3,141 nucleotides of DNA from IMG/VR virus record IMGVR_UViG_2563366894_000005. One strand, given 5' to 3'. The notes beneath the pieces are model-generated. The model was not told where the DNA came from, did not search any database, and was given only the letters and a program-made list of their open reading frames with translations. The stretch is from a virus (taxonomy: Duplodnaviria; Heunggongvirae; Uroviricota; Caudoviricetes). Positions 1 to 3,141 of this stretch are shown here, in pieces (the stretch's first letter is position 1; each line of letters opens with the position of its first letter). Position numbers and translations under genes: made by a program.

Positions 1-282
1 ATGAAAGATTTAACACTCAAATTTGCCGACAGGGCCGACTTTTCGGCCTTTATGGATAGCACTGGCTATTATGATGACGAGTCGATGCAGGATGATATTC
101 TTATTGACGTGATAGGTAACGTGTACAAAGAAACCGGAGAACTGACTGAAGATGGCGAACCGGTATGTGTTAAGGAAGACGGATATTTTGTAAACGTGCG
201 CATCATTAATGATTCGCAAATATCGTCATTATTCGATGAATACGTGGTTGCTGTTGAGCATCAACTTCGTGGCTGGATGTGA
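1..282 (+). CDS. Hypothetical small acidic protein (93 aa), first gene of a tail-fibre operon
   Basis: Complete ORF from ATG at 1 to TGA at 280-282. Its stop overlaps a GAGGA Shine-Dalgarno (281-285) placed 6 nt before the ATG of the next gene at 292, which implies translational coupling. Composition by my count is 13 Asp + 8 Glu against 7 Lys/Arg, so net charge is strongly negative. I recognise no family motif. The upstream promoter and RBS lie outside the window. Confidence 0.6.
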   Translation: MKDLTLKFADRADFSAFMDSTGYYDDESMQDDILIDVIGNVYKETGELTEDGEPVCVKEDGYFVNVRIINDSQISSLFDEYVVAVEHQLRGWM

Positions 283-291
283 GGAAGAAAA

Positions 292-1332
292 ATGGCTACA
301 TCGACAGTAATTCCTGATGACATCAAAACGCAAAAATCCGACGTTAGCAAATTAAAAAACGATCAAGGAAGCTACGCAACAAAATTATATGTAGACAGCA
401 AAGATGAAATCGTTGGTGACTGGTCTGCTTCATGGTATCAGCAGGTATTGCCAACTAGCGGAGCTATATTTGGGAGAAAACTCCGCTCAACTCACAGGAC
501 GGCAGGTGTTGAGGATGCGTATTGCGAACTATACCTCAAAAAATGGATAGACAGTCCAGGTAACGCAATGGCGCGCCTTAACCTGAACGATAACGGGACA
601 AACATTTGCTGGGACTTTACCAACCTTTATGGCGGTACGATGATTTTTCCCGGTGACAGCGGATACCTCAAAATGGGTAACTGCCTTATGTCATACAGCA
701 AGCGTGGAAGTAACGCGCTTATTAAATTTGATTACACCGACACATTACAGATCAAATATGCCAATCATGGGTCAACCATGACATTAAACACACAGGGAAC
801 CGCTTATGCTGGTGTTACTGCTCAATTGTGGGGCAACACCAGCCGTCCTGTTGTTTATGAAGTCGGTGTTGATGGTGGCGCTTATATGTTCTATGCGCAG
901 AAAAATACCGATAACACCTATATGTTAAGCGTTAATGGTGCATGTCATGCCACCGCATTTAACCAGCATTCCGACCGGGATCTGAAAGACAACATTCAGG
1001 TGATCGATAATGCAACCGACCGCATCCGTAAAATGAACGGCTATACATACACGCTTAAAGAAAACGGTATGCCCTATGCTGGTGTCATTGCACAGGAAGC
1101 TCTGGAAGCAATCCCAGAAGTTGTAGGTTCCGCAATGAAATATCAGGACGGTGCAAGCGGATCGGAAGGTGAAGAAGGTGAACGTTATTACACAGTAGAT
1201 TATTCTGGTGTTACTGGCTTGCTTGTTCAGGTAGCCAGAGAGTCAGACGACAGAATAACAGCACTGGAAGAAGAAAACGCAGAATTAAGACAAAGATTAT
1301 CTGCAATTGAGGCGGCGCTTGCGTCTAAATAA
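292..1332 (+). CDS. Phage tail fibre / receptor-binding protein with C-terminal peptidase-S74-type intramolecular chaperone (autoproteolytic) domain
   Basis: 346-aa ORF with SD GAGGA 6 nt upstream. Residues ~227-346 carry the hallmarks of the endosialidase / T5 L-shaped-fibre chaperone domain as I know them: 'SDRDLKDNI' (candidate nucleophile Ser227 at nt 970-972, general-base Lys232), 'GVIAQEALEAIPEVV', 'YTVDYSGVTGLLVQ', then a coiled-coil tail 'ITALEEENAELRQRLSAIEAALASK'. Residues 1-226 are Gly/Asn/Thr/Tyr-rich, as expected for a receptor-binding region. Family assignment is by motif recognition, not search. Confidence 0.85.
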   Translation: MATSTVIPDDIKTQKSDVSKLKNDQGSYATKLYVDSKDEIVGDWSASWYQQVLPTSGAIFGRKLRSTHRTAGVEDAYCELYLKKWIDSPGNAMARLNLNDNGTNICWDFTNLYGGTMIFPGDSGYLKMGNCLMSYSKRGSNALIKFDYTDTLQIKYANHGSTMTLNTQGTAYAGVTAQLWGNTSRPVVYEVGVDGGAYMFYAQKNTDNTYMLSVNGACHATAFNQHSDRDLKDNIQVIDNATDRIRKMNGYTYTLKENGMPYAGVIAQEALEAIPEVVGSAMKYQDGASGSEGEEGERYYTVDYSGVTGLLVQVARESDDRITALEEENAELRQRLSAIEAALASK

Positions 1333-1374: not shown

Positions 1375-1668
1375 ATGGATATAACACCTTTCCTTCATGC
1401 GCTTTGTGCTGTGGCTGCGCAGCTACTGATTGGTCTTTTTACCGGGAACTGGGCTTACGGGGCGATAGCCGGTTGTACGTTCTTCATTGCGCGTGAACAC
1501 ACCCAGGCAGAATATCGCTGGATTGAAATGTTCGGGCATGGCAAGCGAATGAATATGCCGTGGTGGGGCGGTTTTGATCCGCGCGCGTGGGATGTGGCAA
1601 GCCTGATGGATTTTGCTGTGCCGGTGGTGGCGTGTCTGCTGGTCTGGCTGTTGGTTAATCGTGGGTGA
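1375..1668 (+). CDS. Small hydrophobic membrane protein (~97 aa, two predicted transmembrane helices), unknown function
   Basis: The track ORF (1360-1668) begins at TTG. I place the start at ATG 1375 because AGGA (1366-1369) sits 5 nt upstream; ATG 1369 is the alternative. Hydrophobic segments are 'FLHALCAVAAQLLIGLFTG...AYGAIAGCTFFIA' and 'VASLMDFAVPVVACLLVWLLV', separated by an aromatic/basic loop 'REHTQAEYRWIEMFGHGKRMNMPWWGGFDPRAWD'. Local GC is about 47-60% in the stretches I counted. Confidence 0.6.
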   Translation: MDITPFLHALCAVAAQLLIGLFTGNWAYGAIAGCTFFIAREHTQAEYRWIEMFGHGKRMNMPWWGGFDPRAWDVASLMDFAVPVVACLLVWLLVNRG

Positions 1669-1678
1669 AAAAAGGTGA

Positions 1679-1807
1679 GCTGTATATGCAACGGAGGAAG
1701 AAACTCCGTTGCTGGAAGCCTGGAAGAAGTATCGGGTGTTGCTGAACCGTGTTGATACATCAACTGCACCTGATATTGAGTGGCCTACGAACCCTGTCAG
1801 GGAGTAA
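1679..1807 (+). pseudogene. C-terminal remnant of a lambda-Tfa-like tail fibre assembly gene (no start codon, ~42 codons)
   Basis: The frame is open only from the TGA at 1676-1678 to TAA at 1805-1807 and translates to '[42 protein letters not shown]'. This closely matches the C-terminus of phage lambda Tfa as I recall it (...[32 protein letters not shown]). There is no in-frame ATG and the N-terminal ~150 codons are absent. By position it corresponds to the tfaD relic of K-12 DLP12 (recalled synteny, not verified). Confidence 0.75.
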
Positions 1808-1820
1808 TCATTGGGATTAT

Positions 1821-1855
1821 GCCGCAGCACGTCTTAAGCAAGAACGTGCTGCGGT
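1821..1855. terminator. Conserved hairpin between convergent genes (candidate bidirectional terminator / RNA stabiliser)
   Basis: Perfect 11-bp inverted repeat: CCGCAGCACGT (1822-1832) and ACGTGCTGCGG (1844-1854) around an 11-nt loop that itself contains the palindrome CTTAAG. It lies between the Tfa-remnant stop (1807) and the minus-strand methyltransferase stop (1862-1864). The T-run at 1865-1870 is 10 nt from the stem, so this is not a canonical intrinsic terminator on either strand. Confidence 0.4.
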
Positions 1856-1861
1856 TGGATG

Positions 1862-2530
1862 CTATTTTTTCCCTGAAGCGGAAAACATTACTACAGTACC
1901 TTGAACCTTGGTTTTAACATTCTCGAAATGCTCTGAGAGTATATGTGTTAAGCCTTCTTCGGAATCTTTTGTGTTTGAAAAGATGCCTTTCTGATTGTAA
2001 ATGCGCATCAGTTTTTGACCGAAGCTATTGTGCACAACTCCATCGCCAAGAATTGTGGCTCCGTATAGAGTTCCATCGTCAGTTAAGGCCTGCGCCGCAT
2101 TGCGTATTACACAGCTTTTTGTAGATATATTTCCAGGCAGGCAGTGAAGAAGGTAAAACATGGAAATGGAATCAAATTGACCATGTAACGCCGCGGGATA
2201 AGGTTCAAAAACATCATGGCTAATTTTATGTTTAATTTTTGATTCCCCAGCCCTTGTAGATGCCGCGTTCAGGCTAGCTTCGTTCAAATCCATTAAAGAT
2301 ATCAGACTACTCTCAGGTACGTGAGTAAGGTAAAACCCAGTTCCAACACCAATATCCAGATGGTTGTTACCTACATGTTCCAGAAAGTGTGGAAGAAGGT
2401 GTTCCTTTGTAGGACATCCCCATGCAAGCCGATTTGATACTCCCAAAACCCACCAGTCATAAAGCTTTAGGGTAAGTGGTGTGTAAATTTTAGCCCCATC
2501 ATCTGTGTTTTTTTTCATTGATTTCACCAT
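1862..2530 (-). CDS. ybcY: Class I SAM-dependent methyltransferase (small-molecule/protein type, not a DNA methyltransferase); prophage cargo gene
   Basis: 222-aa minus-strand ORF. Motif I 'LDIGVGTG' (Gly-rich SAM loop), an acidic residue ending the next strand ('LMDLNE'), and a hydrophobic motif-II-like 'DSISMFYLLHCL'. No DPPY/NPPY or PCQ DNA-methyltransferase motifs. Sampled GC is about 37-40%, against about 47-60% in the neighbouring fibre and membrane genes. The maximal ORF starts at ATG 2530-2528, but the in-frame ATG at 2518-2516 has a GGTGA SD 5 nt upstream and is the more likely start (218 aa). The symbol is given because position between two tfa relics matches my recollection of ybcY in K-12 DLP12. 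Confidence 0.85.
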   Translation of the reverse strand: MVKSMKKNTDDGAKIYTPLTLKLYDWWVLGVSNRLAWGCPTKEHLLPHFLEHVGNNHLDIGVGTGFYLTHVPESSLISLMDLNEASLNAASTRAGESKIKHKISHDVFEPYPAALHGQFDSISMFYLLHCLPGNISTKSCVIRNAAQALTDDGTLYGATILGDGVVHNSFGQKLMRIYNQKGIFSNTKDSEEGLTHILSEHFENVKTKVQGTVVMFSASGKK

Positions 2531-2559
2531 GTTATAGTTTTATTTGTGAATTAAATCAA
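2531..2559 (-). promoter_or_regulatory. Putative sigma-70 promoter for the methyltransferase gene
   Basis: On the minus strand: -35-like TTGATT (complement of 2554-2559), a 17-nt spacer, and -10-like TATAAC (complement of 2531-2536), all in the AT-rich 56-bp divergent gap between the methyltransferase and the truncated tfa gene. Called by eye against consensus only. The predicted transcript start would fall inside the first ATG, which fits use of the second ATG (2518). Confidence 0.25.
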
Positions 2560-2586
2560 TTATGGCGATGAATTACAAGGGGTTAA

Positions 2587-2856
2587 ATGCTGCCGCAGCA
2601 TAGCGATATTGAAATAGCCTGGTATGCTTCGATACAGCAGGAGCCGAATGGCTGGAAGACCGTCACCACACAGTTCTACATCCAGGAATTCAGTGAGTAT
2701 ATTGCGCCACTGCAGGATGCTGTAGATCTGGAAATCGCAACGGAGGAAGAAAGATCGTTGCTGGAGGCATGGAATAAATATCGGGTATTGTTGAATCGTG
2801 TTGATACATCAACTGTACCTGATATTGAGTGGCCTGCAAATCCTGTCAGGGAGTAA
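2587..2856 (+). CDS. tfaX: Truncated tail fibre assembly protein (Tfa family, 89 aa), tfaX-like
   Basis: ATG at 2587 with AAGGGG SD (2577-2582) 4 nt upstream. The C-terminal half '[54 protein letters not shown]' matches the lambda Tfa C-terminus from memory. The N-terminal ~40 aa are unrelated to lambda Tfa, and the protein is under half the ~194-aa lambda length. Position downstream of the methyltransferase matches tfaX of DLP12 as I recall it. Confidence 0.8.
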
Positions 2857-2906
2857 TCATTGGGATTATGCCGCAGACACGTCGTATGCAGGAACGTGCT
2901 GCGGTT
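2728..2906. repeat. Direct repeat copy B (tfa 3' end + hairpin), ~180 bp
   Basis: Partner of 1679-1856 in the same orientation. Together they bracket the methyltransferase gene, its promoter region and the unique 5' part of the tfaX-like gene. Confidence 0.8.
2871..2904. terminator. Second copy of the conserved hairpin, 3' of the tfaX-like gene (putative terminator)
   Basis: Left arm CCGCAGACACGT (2871-2882, one extra A as a bulge) and right arm ACGTGCTGCGG (2894-2904). The loop (CGTATGCAGGA) differs from copy 1 while the stem is kept. It is followed by a T-rich stretch, TTAGTTTGTGAGCTTT. Confidence 0.35.
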
Positions 2907-2970
2907 AGTTTGTGAGCTTTCGATAGTGGTTGTTATTTTTGCCCTTATTTGTTCCGGAGGCCATGGTTCA

Positions 2971-3141
2971 ATGGTCCGTCTGCCCCCTGTGGTGATGTCA
3001 GCAAAATCAGCCACTGCGCGAACCACAATAGCCCGGGAAGATGCTGAAGATCACCAGGTAAAGCTGTCAGCGCAGAAACTGGAAGAACTGCTCGCATCAA
3101 TGGTTAAGGATGAGGTTGATCGCAATGATGGGATTTATTGA
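2971..3141 (+). CDS. Hypothetical small protein (56 aa from ATG 2971; maximal ORF from TTG 2860 is 93 aa)
   Basis: Open frame ending at TGA 3139-3141. The first in-frame ATG is at 2971, with GGAGG (2956-2960) 10 nt upstream; another in-frame ATG is at 2995. The C-terminal part, 'EDAEDHQVKLSAQKLEELLASMVKDEVDRNDGIY', is charged and probably helical. I recognise no family. The TTG-start extension would overlap the hairpin at 2871-2904, so I disfavour it. Confidence 0.35.
   Translation: MVRLPPVVMSAKSATARTTIAREDAEDHQVKLSAQKLEELLASMVKDEVDRNDGIY

Follow-up and report, generated by a model that had tools for sequence, protein, structure and literature searches.

The analysed sequence, hereafter the window (3,141 nt), forms the right-hand end of a lambdoid prophage that occupies the ompW/trp site in Escherichia coli. 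Its layout matches the tfaD-ybcY-tfaX arrangement already annotated in the K-12 prophage DLP12, and is therefore a case of ordinary phage mosaicism. The locus itself is already known, and the initial annotation's interpretation of it is supported by our analysis; searches of the literature around tfaX/ybcY, CssrB and the ea47 terminators turned up no account of the repeat, or of a function for the hairpin, discussed below.

The genes and features are listed in Table 1. The tail fibre protein, being of the Peptidase_S74 type, does not need Tfa. ORF97/102 always leads into one identical junction to the tfa remnant, and the same ORF and junction occur in PhiR49_2, ev243, Tritos and many viral contigs. 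At the other end, the DUF4376 remnant continues into an ompW attachment-site fragment, and sequence like it is found upstream of tfa in other prophages.

Table 1 Features of the window (positions in window numbering)
Feature	Position	Strand	Basis
ORF93, conserved phage protein without known function, 3′ of stf	1..282	+	phrog_1361, E 7e-46; annotated hypothetical protein
Tail fibre protein, C-terminal intramolecular chaperone Peptidase_S74	292..1332	+	Pfam PF13884, E 5.8e-14; phrog_4563, E 5e-219
ORF97/102, small hydrophobic protein without known function	1375..1668	+	phrog_1443, E 6e-59
Repeat copy A, coding: last 39 codons and stop of a tfaD-type tfa; no N-terminus, pseudogene remnant	1688..1807	+	identity to full-length tfa 3′ ends
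Hairpin A, 11-bp stem CCGCAGCACGT / ACGTGCTGCGG, loop CTTAAGCAAGA	1822..1854	.	folding
Class I SAM-dependent methyltransferase, ybcY homologue	1862..2530	-	Pfam Methyltransf_12/23/25/11; phrog_2132
Divergent predicted promoter spacer, methyltransferase/tfaX	2531..2586	.	sequence and promoter scan
tfaX-like ORF, 89 aa	2587..2856	+	Caudo_TAP E 1.7e-24, profile positions 75-130 of 131; phrog_2341 full length
Repeat copy B, coding: last 39 codons and stop of tfaX	2737..2856	+	repeat search, alignment
Hairpin B, same stem, bulged A at 2877, loop CGTATGCAGGA	2871..2904	.	folding, lambda comparison
Short conserved flank 3′ of hairpin B (..GTGAGCTTTCGATAGTG)	2907..2928	.	sequence comparison
Remnant of DUF4376 / other tail-fibre gene, pseudogene	2953..3141	+	PGAP note; phrog_7703, phrog_1141 'tail fiber protein'

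The methyltransferase, which probably starts at Met5 (2518), is present in 3,836 of 5,426 complete E. coli genomes. It has no PDB match and no NCBIfam equivalog, and its reading as a DNA methyltransferase or as part of a restriction-modification system was rejected because only generic class I SAM domains (Methyltransf_12/23/25/11) were matched. Accessory genes that lie between phage genes with their own promoter and terminator are known as morons, a concept drawn from comparisons of HK97 and HK022. In keeping with this description, the methyltransferase has its own predicted promoter 5′ of the gene, with an RpoD-bound counterpart in K-12, and three pairs of genomes, alike in the flanking genes, differ in whether they carry it. 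The minus-strand hexamers are TTGATT-17-TATAAC (2559-2554 / 2536-2531), reported as the ybcY promoter bound by the RpoD holoenzyme in K-12 (PMC3946193); a second minus-strand pair, TTAACC-16-CATAAT, lies in the same spacer. Downstream, the hairpin lies 7 nt past the stop codon. In the window this hairpin lacks a U-tract on the strand of the gene; the PhiR68_2 copy of the gene is followed by the hairpin and UUUUU.

Residues 1-30 of tfaX are unrelated to Tfa and residues 31-86 correspond to the Tfa C-terminal part, with DNA homology to full-length tfa beginning at 2680; one illegitimate join at the 5′ end is needed to account for tfaX. Both copy A and tfaX match the C-terminal part of Caudo_TAP (PF02413), and neither is a complete Tfa gene with its N-terminal domain: copy A comprises 39 codons without a start codon, and tfaX lacks profile positions 1-74. 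Both are fragments of Tfa genes. An intact 89-aa ORF with a Shine-Dalgarno-like AAGGGG before the ATG, a PHROG family of its own and of equal length, the company of the methyltransferase in hundreds of genomes and the annotation of TfaX as a protein in K-12 would all suit a working small protein kept with the methyltransferase, the second copy being maintained by selection and not a recombination scar. We regard this as unlikely, given that the N-terminal half of Tfa (Pfam positions 1-74) is missing, that PGAP calls tfaX a partial pseudogene and that its 3′ end is replaced in most phages; it is in any event compatible with the main explanation, exchange of the cassette by homologous recombination, and not a replacement for it. 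The early end of the second copy, at window position 2811 or 2834, leaves a repeat of only 75-100 bp in most phages; 816 of the 5,426 complete genomes carry that copy at full length together with its right flank.

Two diverged copies of the tfa 3′ end

A repeat search paired 1688-1827 with 2737-2876 (140 nt, 90%) and 1828-1856 with 2878-2906 (29 nt, 90%); the copy spacing of 1049 and then 1050 thus reflects a single 1-nt indel. BLAST aligned 1688-1856 to 2737-2906 at 89.4% identity over 170 columns with an E value of about 1e-60, so that the resemblance of the copies is not a matter of chance, and the longest perfect block is 35 nt (1793-1827). The initial annotation had placed repeats of about 90% identity at 1679-1856 and 2728-2906. 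The pairwise comparison it proposed returned an identity not much below that estimate, and only the left limit needs correction, lying 9 nt too far left in this register. Positions 1679-1686 (GCTGTATA) are similar to GCTGTAGA at 2719-2726, and the homology may extend further to the left if copy A has lost 9 nt.

Copy A is 98% identical to the full-length tfa 3′ end in PhiR26_1 and 97% identical to that of K-12 tfaD; PGAP labels it 'tail fiber assembly protein, missing N-terminus'. Copy B is a distinct allele, linked to a hairpin type and a right flank of its own. The copies share 34 of 39 residues, and their 120 coding nucleotides differ at 14 positions, nine of them third codon positions, amounting to seven synonymous codons and five amino-acid changes. 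The resulting rates (NG86; dN 0.064, dS 0.40) look like the outcome of purifying selection, and agree with the earlier remark that the differences are mostly silent; the codon example quoted there (CTGAACCGT against TTGAATCGT, both Leu-Asn-Arg) is correct.

These alignments bear directly on the origin of the repeat. Direct repeats of equal length that immediately bracket a cassette could have arisen by a recent local duplication when the methyltransferase inserted, in the manner of a target-site duplication, with the copies diverging in place. We give this history almost no credence. The copies differ by about 10.6% with a dS of 0.40, whereas no E. coli genome that matched the enclosed methyltransferase falls below 95% identity to it, and most reach 99% or more. 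Copy A matches full-length genes of the tfaD type (98%), while copy B corresponds to the allele that accompanies the B hairpin and the DUF4376 flank. The synonymous bias, moreover, requires that both copies diverged within working genes, and copy A is untranslatable here. A recent duplication was rejected on the divergence and the separate allele matches, and the view of the initial annotation, that these are diverged tfa alleles, holds.

The hairpin and its neighbours

Each copy is followed by a G+C-rich stem-loop, with eight G:C pairs in the 11-bp stem. The arms of hairpin A lie at 1822-1832/1844-1854 within an extended helix (1812-1864, dG -27.7) that is followed on the plus strand by T6 at 1865-1870; those of hairpin B lie at 2871-2876 plus 2878-2882/2894-2904, and this hairpin is identical to the second lambda hairpin (lambda 24162-24195). 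Contexts of about 80 nt fold at dG -34 (A) and -30 (B) kcal/mol, and both hairpins are far more stable than shuffled sequence (z -3.9 and -3.3, respectively). As previously described, the stems are conserved and the loops (CTTAAGCAAGA and CGTATGCAGGA) differ, the bulged A at 2877 having gone unmentioned: three of 11 loop positions and none of 22 stem positions distinguish A from B. Taken alone, this two-copy contrast is suggestive at best. The proposal that the hairpin is under selection draws its support chiefly from the wider family, in which 26 variants have a diversity of 0.076 in the stem and 0.34 in the loop, the stem conservation being partly imposed by the search pattern (ascertainment bias). 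Pairs counted by script include 13 non-canonical cells out of 286, and the variants contain several G.U changes and one C:G to A:T double change; covariation in the stem is thin, this double change probably being a single event.

The family motif CCGCAG...CTGCGG also occurs in lambda (two copies flanking ea47), HK97 and mEp460. The hairpin is a separate unit whose left and right neighbours have been reassorted: at least five upstream and at least five downstream contexts occur in mixed combinations, and for two left and two right contexts all four combinations were seen. Its neighbours are tfa and sib in HK97, a fibre gene and dinI in mEp460, and ynaE and ybcY in PhiR68_2. The flank 3′ of hairpin B is common to the second lambda hairpin, Tritos, PhiR49_2 and HK97-type contexts, and homology stops at 2928.

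The hairpin is most likely a two-way, factor-independent terminator stem serving both convergent units, which also supplies homology for recombination. Its terminator activity is inferred. It occupies the site at which distant enterobacterial tfa homologues carry textbook terminators, some 20 nt or less from the stop codon. U-tracts trail the hairpin on either strand in some contexts, as in PhiR68_2 and ETEC4069, where UUUUU directly follows the minus-strand hairpin. In the window, copy A has U6 only past the extended helix (1865-1870) and none on the methyltransferase strand, and copy B is without a clean U-tract (UUAGUUUGUGAG). The 11-nt loop and the bulge kept a consensus terminator scanner from recognising the main hairpins, of which it called only a sub-stem of B, and the hairpins were assessed by folding instead. 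Hairpin A and the stem-loop at the 3′ terminus of the Rfam CssrB consensus (RF02799) are identical; CssrB is a Shigella sRNA with a Northern band of ~180 nt whose 3′ end was assigned by terminator prediction. Membership of the window in CssrB (score 32.6 against a gathering score of 76) or in IS009 (RF02111; 112.5 and 68.3 against 117) was rejected; the homology is real, but the scores are below threshold.

Cassette-bearing and cassette-less genomes

Three independent pairs of genomes with and without the cassette were found, and in each the cassette-less genome has one tfa copy, joined inside the shared tfa end or hairpin. The first pair sets the window lineage against ECL27977/ECL27829, both at the ompW site, where the single copy is a hybrid, A-like to about 1790 and thereafter continuing with the B hairpin and flank. 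In the second, FORC_069 / O104:H4 stands against NMBU-W13E19 and three other genomes, the cassette-less ones carrying a full-length hybrid tfa. The third compares ETEC4069 with PhiR49_2, and the switch falls within about 15 nt of the 3′ arm of the hairpin. Natural recombinant products thus exist, the single copy being an A/B-type hybrid in two pairs and, in the third (PhiR49_2), a single copy with a flank switch just past the hairpin. Both configurations of the locus that the initial annotation envisaged, with and without the cassette, therefore occur in related genomes, and its claim of gain or loss at repeat-defined breakpoints is supported.

Cassette-less genomes were sought with a synthetic deletion-product query. 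Those with the ORF102-type left flank could be counted; for the full-tfa type, in which pieces of the query were joined across cassette-bearing genomes, only the four top single-piece matches were counted. In a scan of contigs, many non-enteric matches were lambda contamination and were ignored. The single-copy form was found in at least six strains, compared with hundreds that have the cassette, so loss through the repeats is either infrequent or selected against. The single-copy genomes could be ancestral empty sites or deletions; they are 94-97% identical to the window lineage and not near-identical.

Across 129 loci, breakpoints cluster in the repeated segment. Homology to the window begins at 1688, 1710 or 1822, and ends at 1785/1788, 1861, 2811, 2834 or 2906/2928, or reaches 3141; some breakpoints lie inside the hairpin alone. 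RecA and Red require about 25-30 bp or more of uninterrupted identity. The window offers a 170-bp substrate that is 89% identical, its longest uninterrupted stretch being 35 bp, and other lineages have 62-99 bp of near-identity. Ayreon-type genomes have lost 1898-2556 at a 3-of-4-nt microhomology outside the repeats, so the cassette can also be lost by other routes.

The breakpoint positions also weigh on whether the cassette is a site-specific mobile unit (an integron cassette, transposon or invertible segment) with the hairpins as recombinase targets. Hairpin-to-hairpin units do recur (ybcY-tfaX here, ea47 in lambda), some breakpoints fall within a hairpin arm, and Pin-type invertases lie near tfa in related phages. 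Such a unit nevertheless appears highly improbable: the window and its 6-kb flanks hold no recombinase except the prophage's distant integrase, breakpoints occur at no fixed ends but are scattered over no fewer than six positions, across the tfa coding repeat and the hairpin alike, and the hairpin also occurs without any cassette. An invertible segment in particular was rejected, since the window has direct rather than inverted repeats and no invertase.

Homologous recombination between a repeat made of the tfa 3′ end and its hairpin, which renders the cassette mobile, is in our judgement the likely explanation overall. The 170-bp repeat is the conserved 3′ end of a lambda-family tfa together with the hairpin closing the tail-fibre operon, a segment kept among otherwise unrelated lambdoid phages and so providing a stretch of homology where the fibre genes meet the accessory 'b region'. 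The cassette consists of a hairpin, the opposite-strand ybcY methyltransferase with its putative sigma-70 promoter, and tfaX, and would behave as a moron. We infer the order of events and the recombination pathway as follows. tfaX would have a single origin, in an illegitimate join between the promoter region of the methyltransferase and the middle of a second tfa gene. The cassette would then have moved between phages, gained or lost through homologous recombination, on the left within the tfa end or hairpin and on the right within tfaX or its hairpin, with either RecA or a phage Red-type system as the possible agent. Copy A would be the scar of a separate event, in which a fibre with a built-in chaperone took the place of a Tfa-dependent stf-tfa module and just the last 39 codons and the hairpin were spared.

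A broader reading of the hairpin is more tentative. The 34-nt CCGCAG...CTGCGG element could be portable punctuation in E. coli lambdoid phages, both two-way terminator and preferred crossover point, which we think possible, if rather doubtful. Were it so, b-region accessory genes would be exchanged hairpin to hairpin and the tfa coding repeat would be secondary; candidate units are ybcY-tfaX here, ea47 in lambda, and units bordered by dinI or pin-ynaE elsewhere.

The locus is a clean and well-populated case of lambdoid prophages shuffling fibre modules and accessory genes via short conserved gene ends, with cassette-bearing and cassette-less natural forms at one chromosomal site open to study. 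Beyond bookkeeping its significance is slight. It also shows the partial 'tail fiber assembly' pseudogenes, a 45-aa hypothetical CDS and the near-threshold Rfam IS009 matches to be by-products of this mosaic joint and not independent genes. The sole part that might repay work is the hairpin, which reappears at the boundaries of modules in lambda, HK97 and many prophages.

Comparison with known systems

The closest known arrangement is K-12 DLP12 (b0561-b0563), which has the tfaD-ybcY-tfaX order and orientation, 97% identity over window 1688-2833, an A-type hairpin between tfaD and ybcY and the same ybcY promoter hexamers. It differs in having a nearly full-length tfaD on the left, a ybcY pseudogene and one mutated base in the hairpin stem. 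K-12 tfaX diverges at 2833 without a second hairpin, so that the direct repeat there is only about 100 bp, and the right-hand neighbours are appY and ompT, whereas the window has the DUF4376 remnant and ompW.

In lambda, the last ~120 nt of tfa (orf-194) are 84-87% identical to both window copies, and two direct hairpins of the same family, at 22573-22606 (the tfa end) and 24162-24195, bracket the opposite-strand accessory gene ea47. Lambda, in contrast, has neither methyltransferase nor tfaX, repeats the 34-nt hairpin alone and not the tfa coding end, and carries the compensatory C:G to A:T change in its tfa-proximal hairpin.

The Pin/Gin/Cin systems likewise place two tfa-related copies close to where the fibre operon ends, and Pin genes lie beside tfa in related phages; their copies are inverted and accompanied by an invertase, whereas the window has direct copies and no invertase. 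CssrB shares the hairpin alone with the window. IS009 has an alignment to the coding DNA of tfaX and a partial one to copy A, overlapping a protein-coding remnant in the window.

With morons the cassette shares a non-essential opposite-strand gene with its own predicted sigma-70 promoter and a 3′ hairpin, present or absent among similar phages. It departs from them in carrying tfaX, a fragment of the neighbouring gene, and for that reason is flanked by direct repeats. Experimental exchange by De Paepe et al. 2014 (PMC3945230), in which lambda recombined with Rac/Qin at about 2e-6 in a Red-beta-driven reaction, took place in stf-tfa homology of 88-96% identity, with junctions inside tfa included. 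The repeat in the window is a substrate of this kind, and recombination there would be feasible. Those of the experiment were 650-700 bp long and recombined between molecules, whereas that of the window is 170 bp and could act within or between molecules.

Two tfa alleles at the prophage end

The window, matched at 100% identity by E. coli Ecol_316 and ten more complete genomes, makes up the right-hand end of a lambdoid prophage integrated at ompW, adjoining yciE and trp, in the order J, lom, broken stf, window and ompW fragment. Two direct repeats of the tfa (tail fibre assembly chaperone) 3′ end, copies A and B, are each followed by a hairpin and bracket a cassette of methyltransferase and tfaX.

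Features of the window, in window positions
Feature	Coordinates	Strand	Description
ORF93			First gene of the window
Tail fibre			After ORF93; Peptidase_S74 intramolecular chaperone
Small hydrophobic ORF	1375-1668		phrog_1443
Copy A			39-codon tfa remnant, then hairpin A
Coding part of the repeat	1688-1807 (copy A), 2737-2856 (copy B)	+	39 codons and TAA
Class I SAM methyltransferase	1862-2530	−	ybcY homologue
Spacer			56 bp, divergent promoters; between methyltransferase and tfaX-like ORF
tfaX-like ORF			89 aa, last 56 residues matching Caudo_TAP (Pfam family of Tfa); 3′ end is copy B, then hairpin B
Fibre or DUF4376 gene remnant	2953-3141		phrog_1141; right flank

The small ORF has no match in Pfam or NCBIfam; it is found with several different fibre modules, and an identical junction to the tfa remnant always comes next. 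Sequences 71-74% identical to the right-flank remnant lie upstream of tfa in prophages L022, L042, L089 and L111. This remnant is the third tail-fibre-related one, and scars of fibre modules have accumulated at the prophage end. The stf gene just left of the window (L001 3623-6001) is annotated as two partial pseudogenes with ~1 kb unannotated between them, and this prophage may have a broken side tail fibre. A RefSeq CDS for a 45-aa hypothetical protein (WP_001309429.1, 1780-1917) spans the tfa stop codon, hairpin A and, on the opposite strand, the methyltransferase 3′ end, and is probably not a real gene.

BLAST recovered the repeats described in the initial annotation at 1688-1856 and 2737-2906, with 89.4% identity over 170 columns (E ~1e-60) and a longest perfect block of 35 bp. 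The left limit first assigned (1679/2728) is 9 nt too far left in register, homology to 1679 being possible given a 9-nt deletion in copy A. A repeat search returned two blocks, 1688-1827 against 2737-2876 (140 nt, 90%) and 1828-1856 against 2878-2906 (29 nt, 90%), whose spacings of 1049 and 1050 imply one 1-nt indel between the copies. The silent bias first noted holds, with 9 of 14 coding differences at third codon positions; seven changed codons are synonymous and five alter the amino acid (dN 0.064, dS 0.40, NG86).

This synonymous-biased divergence, together with the allele matches, supports the proposal of two diverged tfa alleles rather than a recent duplication. Copy A matches the 3′ end of full-length PhiR26_1 tfa at 98% identity and K-12 tfaD at 97%. 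Copy B is another allele, always paired with a B-type hairpin and the TTAGTTTGTGAGC flank. Recent duplication followed by divergence in place is ruled out by ~10% synonymous-biased divergence lying beside a methyltransferase whose conservation reaches 99% or more in most genomes. In ETEC4069 (L131, ~4188-4290 and 5237-5340), the left parts of both copies agree at 98 of 99 positions, and the 3′ end and spacer of copy B come from a third tfa allele, a pattern that suggests gene conversion or later exchange between A and B.

The tfaX coding DNA (2610-2813, 112.5 bits) and copy A (1666-1764, 68.3 bits) also match Rfam IS009 (RF02111, typed only 'Gene'), both below its gathering score of 117; this family appears to model tfa-derived prophage DNA of the window type.

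Mosaic joints and cassette-less variants

Homology ends were mapped along the window for 129 loci in phages, genomes and viral contigs. Homology starts at 1 or 1366/1374 (the same left module), 1688, 1710 or 1822 (the hairpin alone), and ends at 1785/1788, 1861, 2811, 2834 or 2906/2928 or continues to 3141. Most phages have tfaX cut at 2811 or 2834, followed by unrelated sequence, so their direct repeat is only 75-100 bp. Because the first 30 codons of tfaX and the promoter spacer are unrelated to tfa, one illegitimate join is needed for tfaX. Copy A is a second, separate scar; the junction from small ORF to tfa remnant is common to PhiR49_2, ev243, Tritos and other phages, whose fibre has a built-in chaperone and no need for Tfa.

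Variants lacking the cassette at repeat-defined breakpoints, as initially predicted, were found in three cases, so that the check which could have refuted the initial annotation came out in its favour. In ECL27977 and ECL27829 the prophage at this same ompW site lacks the methyltransferase and has a single tfa remnant; this copy is A-like to ~1790, then continues into the B hairpin, B flank and DUF4376 remnant. NMBU-W13E19 and three more genomes have stf, full-length tfa and the DUF4376 remnant at ompW, where FORC_069 and O104:H4 strains have stf, tfa, methyltransferase, tfaX and DUF4376. In the NMBU-W13E19 group the left part of the single tfa resembles A, apart from a small patch that resembles B, and from the hairpin onward the sequence is B-like. 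In PhiR49_2 and many E. coli prophages the small ORF leads into an A-type copy whose loop is also A-type, and then comes the flank found after ETEC4069 copy B; the switch relative to ETEC4069 falls no more than ~15 nt from the hairpin 3′ arm. Identity between the single-copy genomes and the window lineage is 94-97%, short of near-identity. An A-by-B crossover could have produced these genomes, or they could represent ancestral sites that the cassette entered by recombination.

Ayreon (L005 3007-3342) and some E. coli, including CH4797 (H112), lack 1898-2556 by another route. They retain hairpin A and 36 nt from the methyltransferase 3′ end (1862-1897), joined to 2557-2673 with a 3-of-4-nt microhomology (cagt/caat). 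Here the loss or empty site is not repeat-defined.

A hairpin recurring at module borders

The stems are conserved and the loops differ, as the initial annotation stated; the bulged A of copy B at 2877 was missed. Both hairpins are much more stable than shuffled sequence (z -3.9 and -3.3). Among 26 variants, diversity is 0.076 in stem columns and 0.34 in the loop, 4.5 times lower in the stem, where the lower six pairs are partly fixed by the search pattern and only the upper five are unbiased. Non-canonical pairs occupy 13/286 cells, and several single stem changes keep G.U pairing. A double change, C:G to A:T, occurs at one pair (lambda type); an intermediate exists, likely a recombinant.

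Lambda (L132) carries the hairpin exactly twice, both times in one orientation, at 22573-22606, right behind tfa, and at 24162-24195, with ea47 between the two; the second is identical to hairpin B and has the same ..CGATAGTG flank. The hairpin lies between tfa and sib in HK97, between a fibre gene and dinI in mEp460, and between ynaE and ybcY in PhiR68_2. At least five upstream and at least five downstream contexts are mixed, two left and two right ones being found in all four pairings, so exchange occurs at or in the hairpin. By these contexts the hairpin is a unit of its own, and its recurrence at module borders is the one loose end here.

Lambda-type tfa was also seen in Vibrio, Bradyrhizobium, Pseudomonas (48.4-kb contigs), Streptomyces, Veillonella and other assemblies (L143-L153, L156-L158, L161, L164, L180, L202), and in MW057783.1, named Campylobacter phage CJLB-4, with a hairpin close to the lambda position. 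These look like lambda contamination or mislabelling.

Other E. coli tfa alleles have different hairpins in the same place, and distant homologues (Pantoea, Providencia, Enterobacter, Photorhabdus, Pseudescherichia) have textbook terminators ~20 nt or less from the stop codon. In copy A the extended helix (1812-1864, dG -27.7) gives way to U6 at 1865-1870, bases that double as the last two lysine codons of the methyltransferase. With an A-tract ahead of the hairpin, as in PhiR68_2 and ETEC4069 copy B, minus-strand RNA leaving ybcY or dinI runs straight into the hairpin, followed by UUUUU. In the match at window 1791-1853, the A-type hairpin is identical to the stem-loop that ends the Rfam CssrB consensus; CssrB, a Shigella RNA of ~180 nt, was detected by Northern blotting, and its 3′ end was assigned to a predicted Rho-independent terminator (PMC3071730). 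Because of the allele hairpins, distant terminators, U-tracts and CssrB together, the hairpin is probably a terminator stem common to convergent transcription units, whose termination efficiency would vary with its flanks. The Shigella CssrB copies have another upstream context (AAAGGAAACCG), also present in E. coli loci such as L141.

The methyltransferase and the K-12 arrangement

The methyltransferase occurs in 3,836 of 5,426 complete E. coli genomes at 95% identity or higher throughout; active temperate phages that carry it include PhiR26_1, 2G7b and ev243. The stretch that begins at its start (2450), takes in tfaX, copy B and hairpin B and reaches the DUF4376 flank is covered to at least 80% in 816 genomes, so the full 170-bp repeat architecture is common; the particular left side of the window is rare (11-12 genomes). 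The promoter hexamers, TTGATT-17-TATAAC, have been reported in K-12 as an RpoD-bound, H-NS-associated ybcY promoter (PMC3946193), and with its own promoter the cassette fits the moron concept. The -10 element (minus strand, 2536-2531) abuts the annotated ATG at 2530. The PHROG alignment begins at residue 5, with GGTGA just ahead of Met5, and translation probably begins at the ATG at 2518-2516.

The initial observation stands, and its interpretation is supported with these refinements. Recombination through the repeat is plausible; lambda is reported to exchange with Rac and Qin prophages via stf-tfa homology of 88-96% identity at ~2e-6, mainly in a Red-beta-dependent manner and with some junctions inside tfa (PMC3945230). 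The K-12 prophage DLP12 (MG1655) has the same order, tfaD, ybcY, tfaX, at 97% identity to window 1688-2833, with ybcY a pseudogene. The locus represents an allelic form of the K-12-annotated arrangement found in most E. coli, and the process is textbook lambdoid mosaicism.
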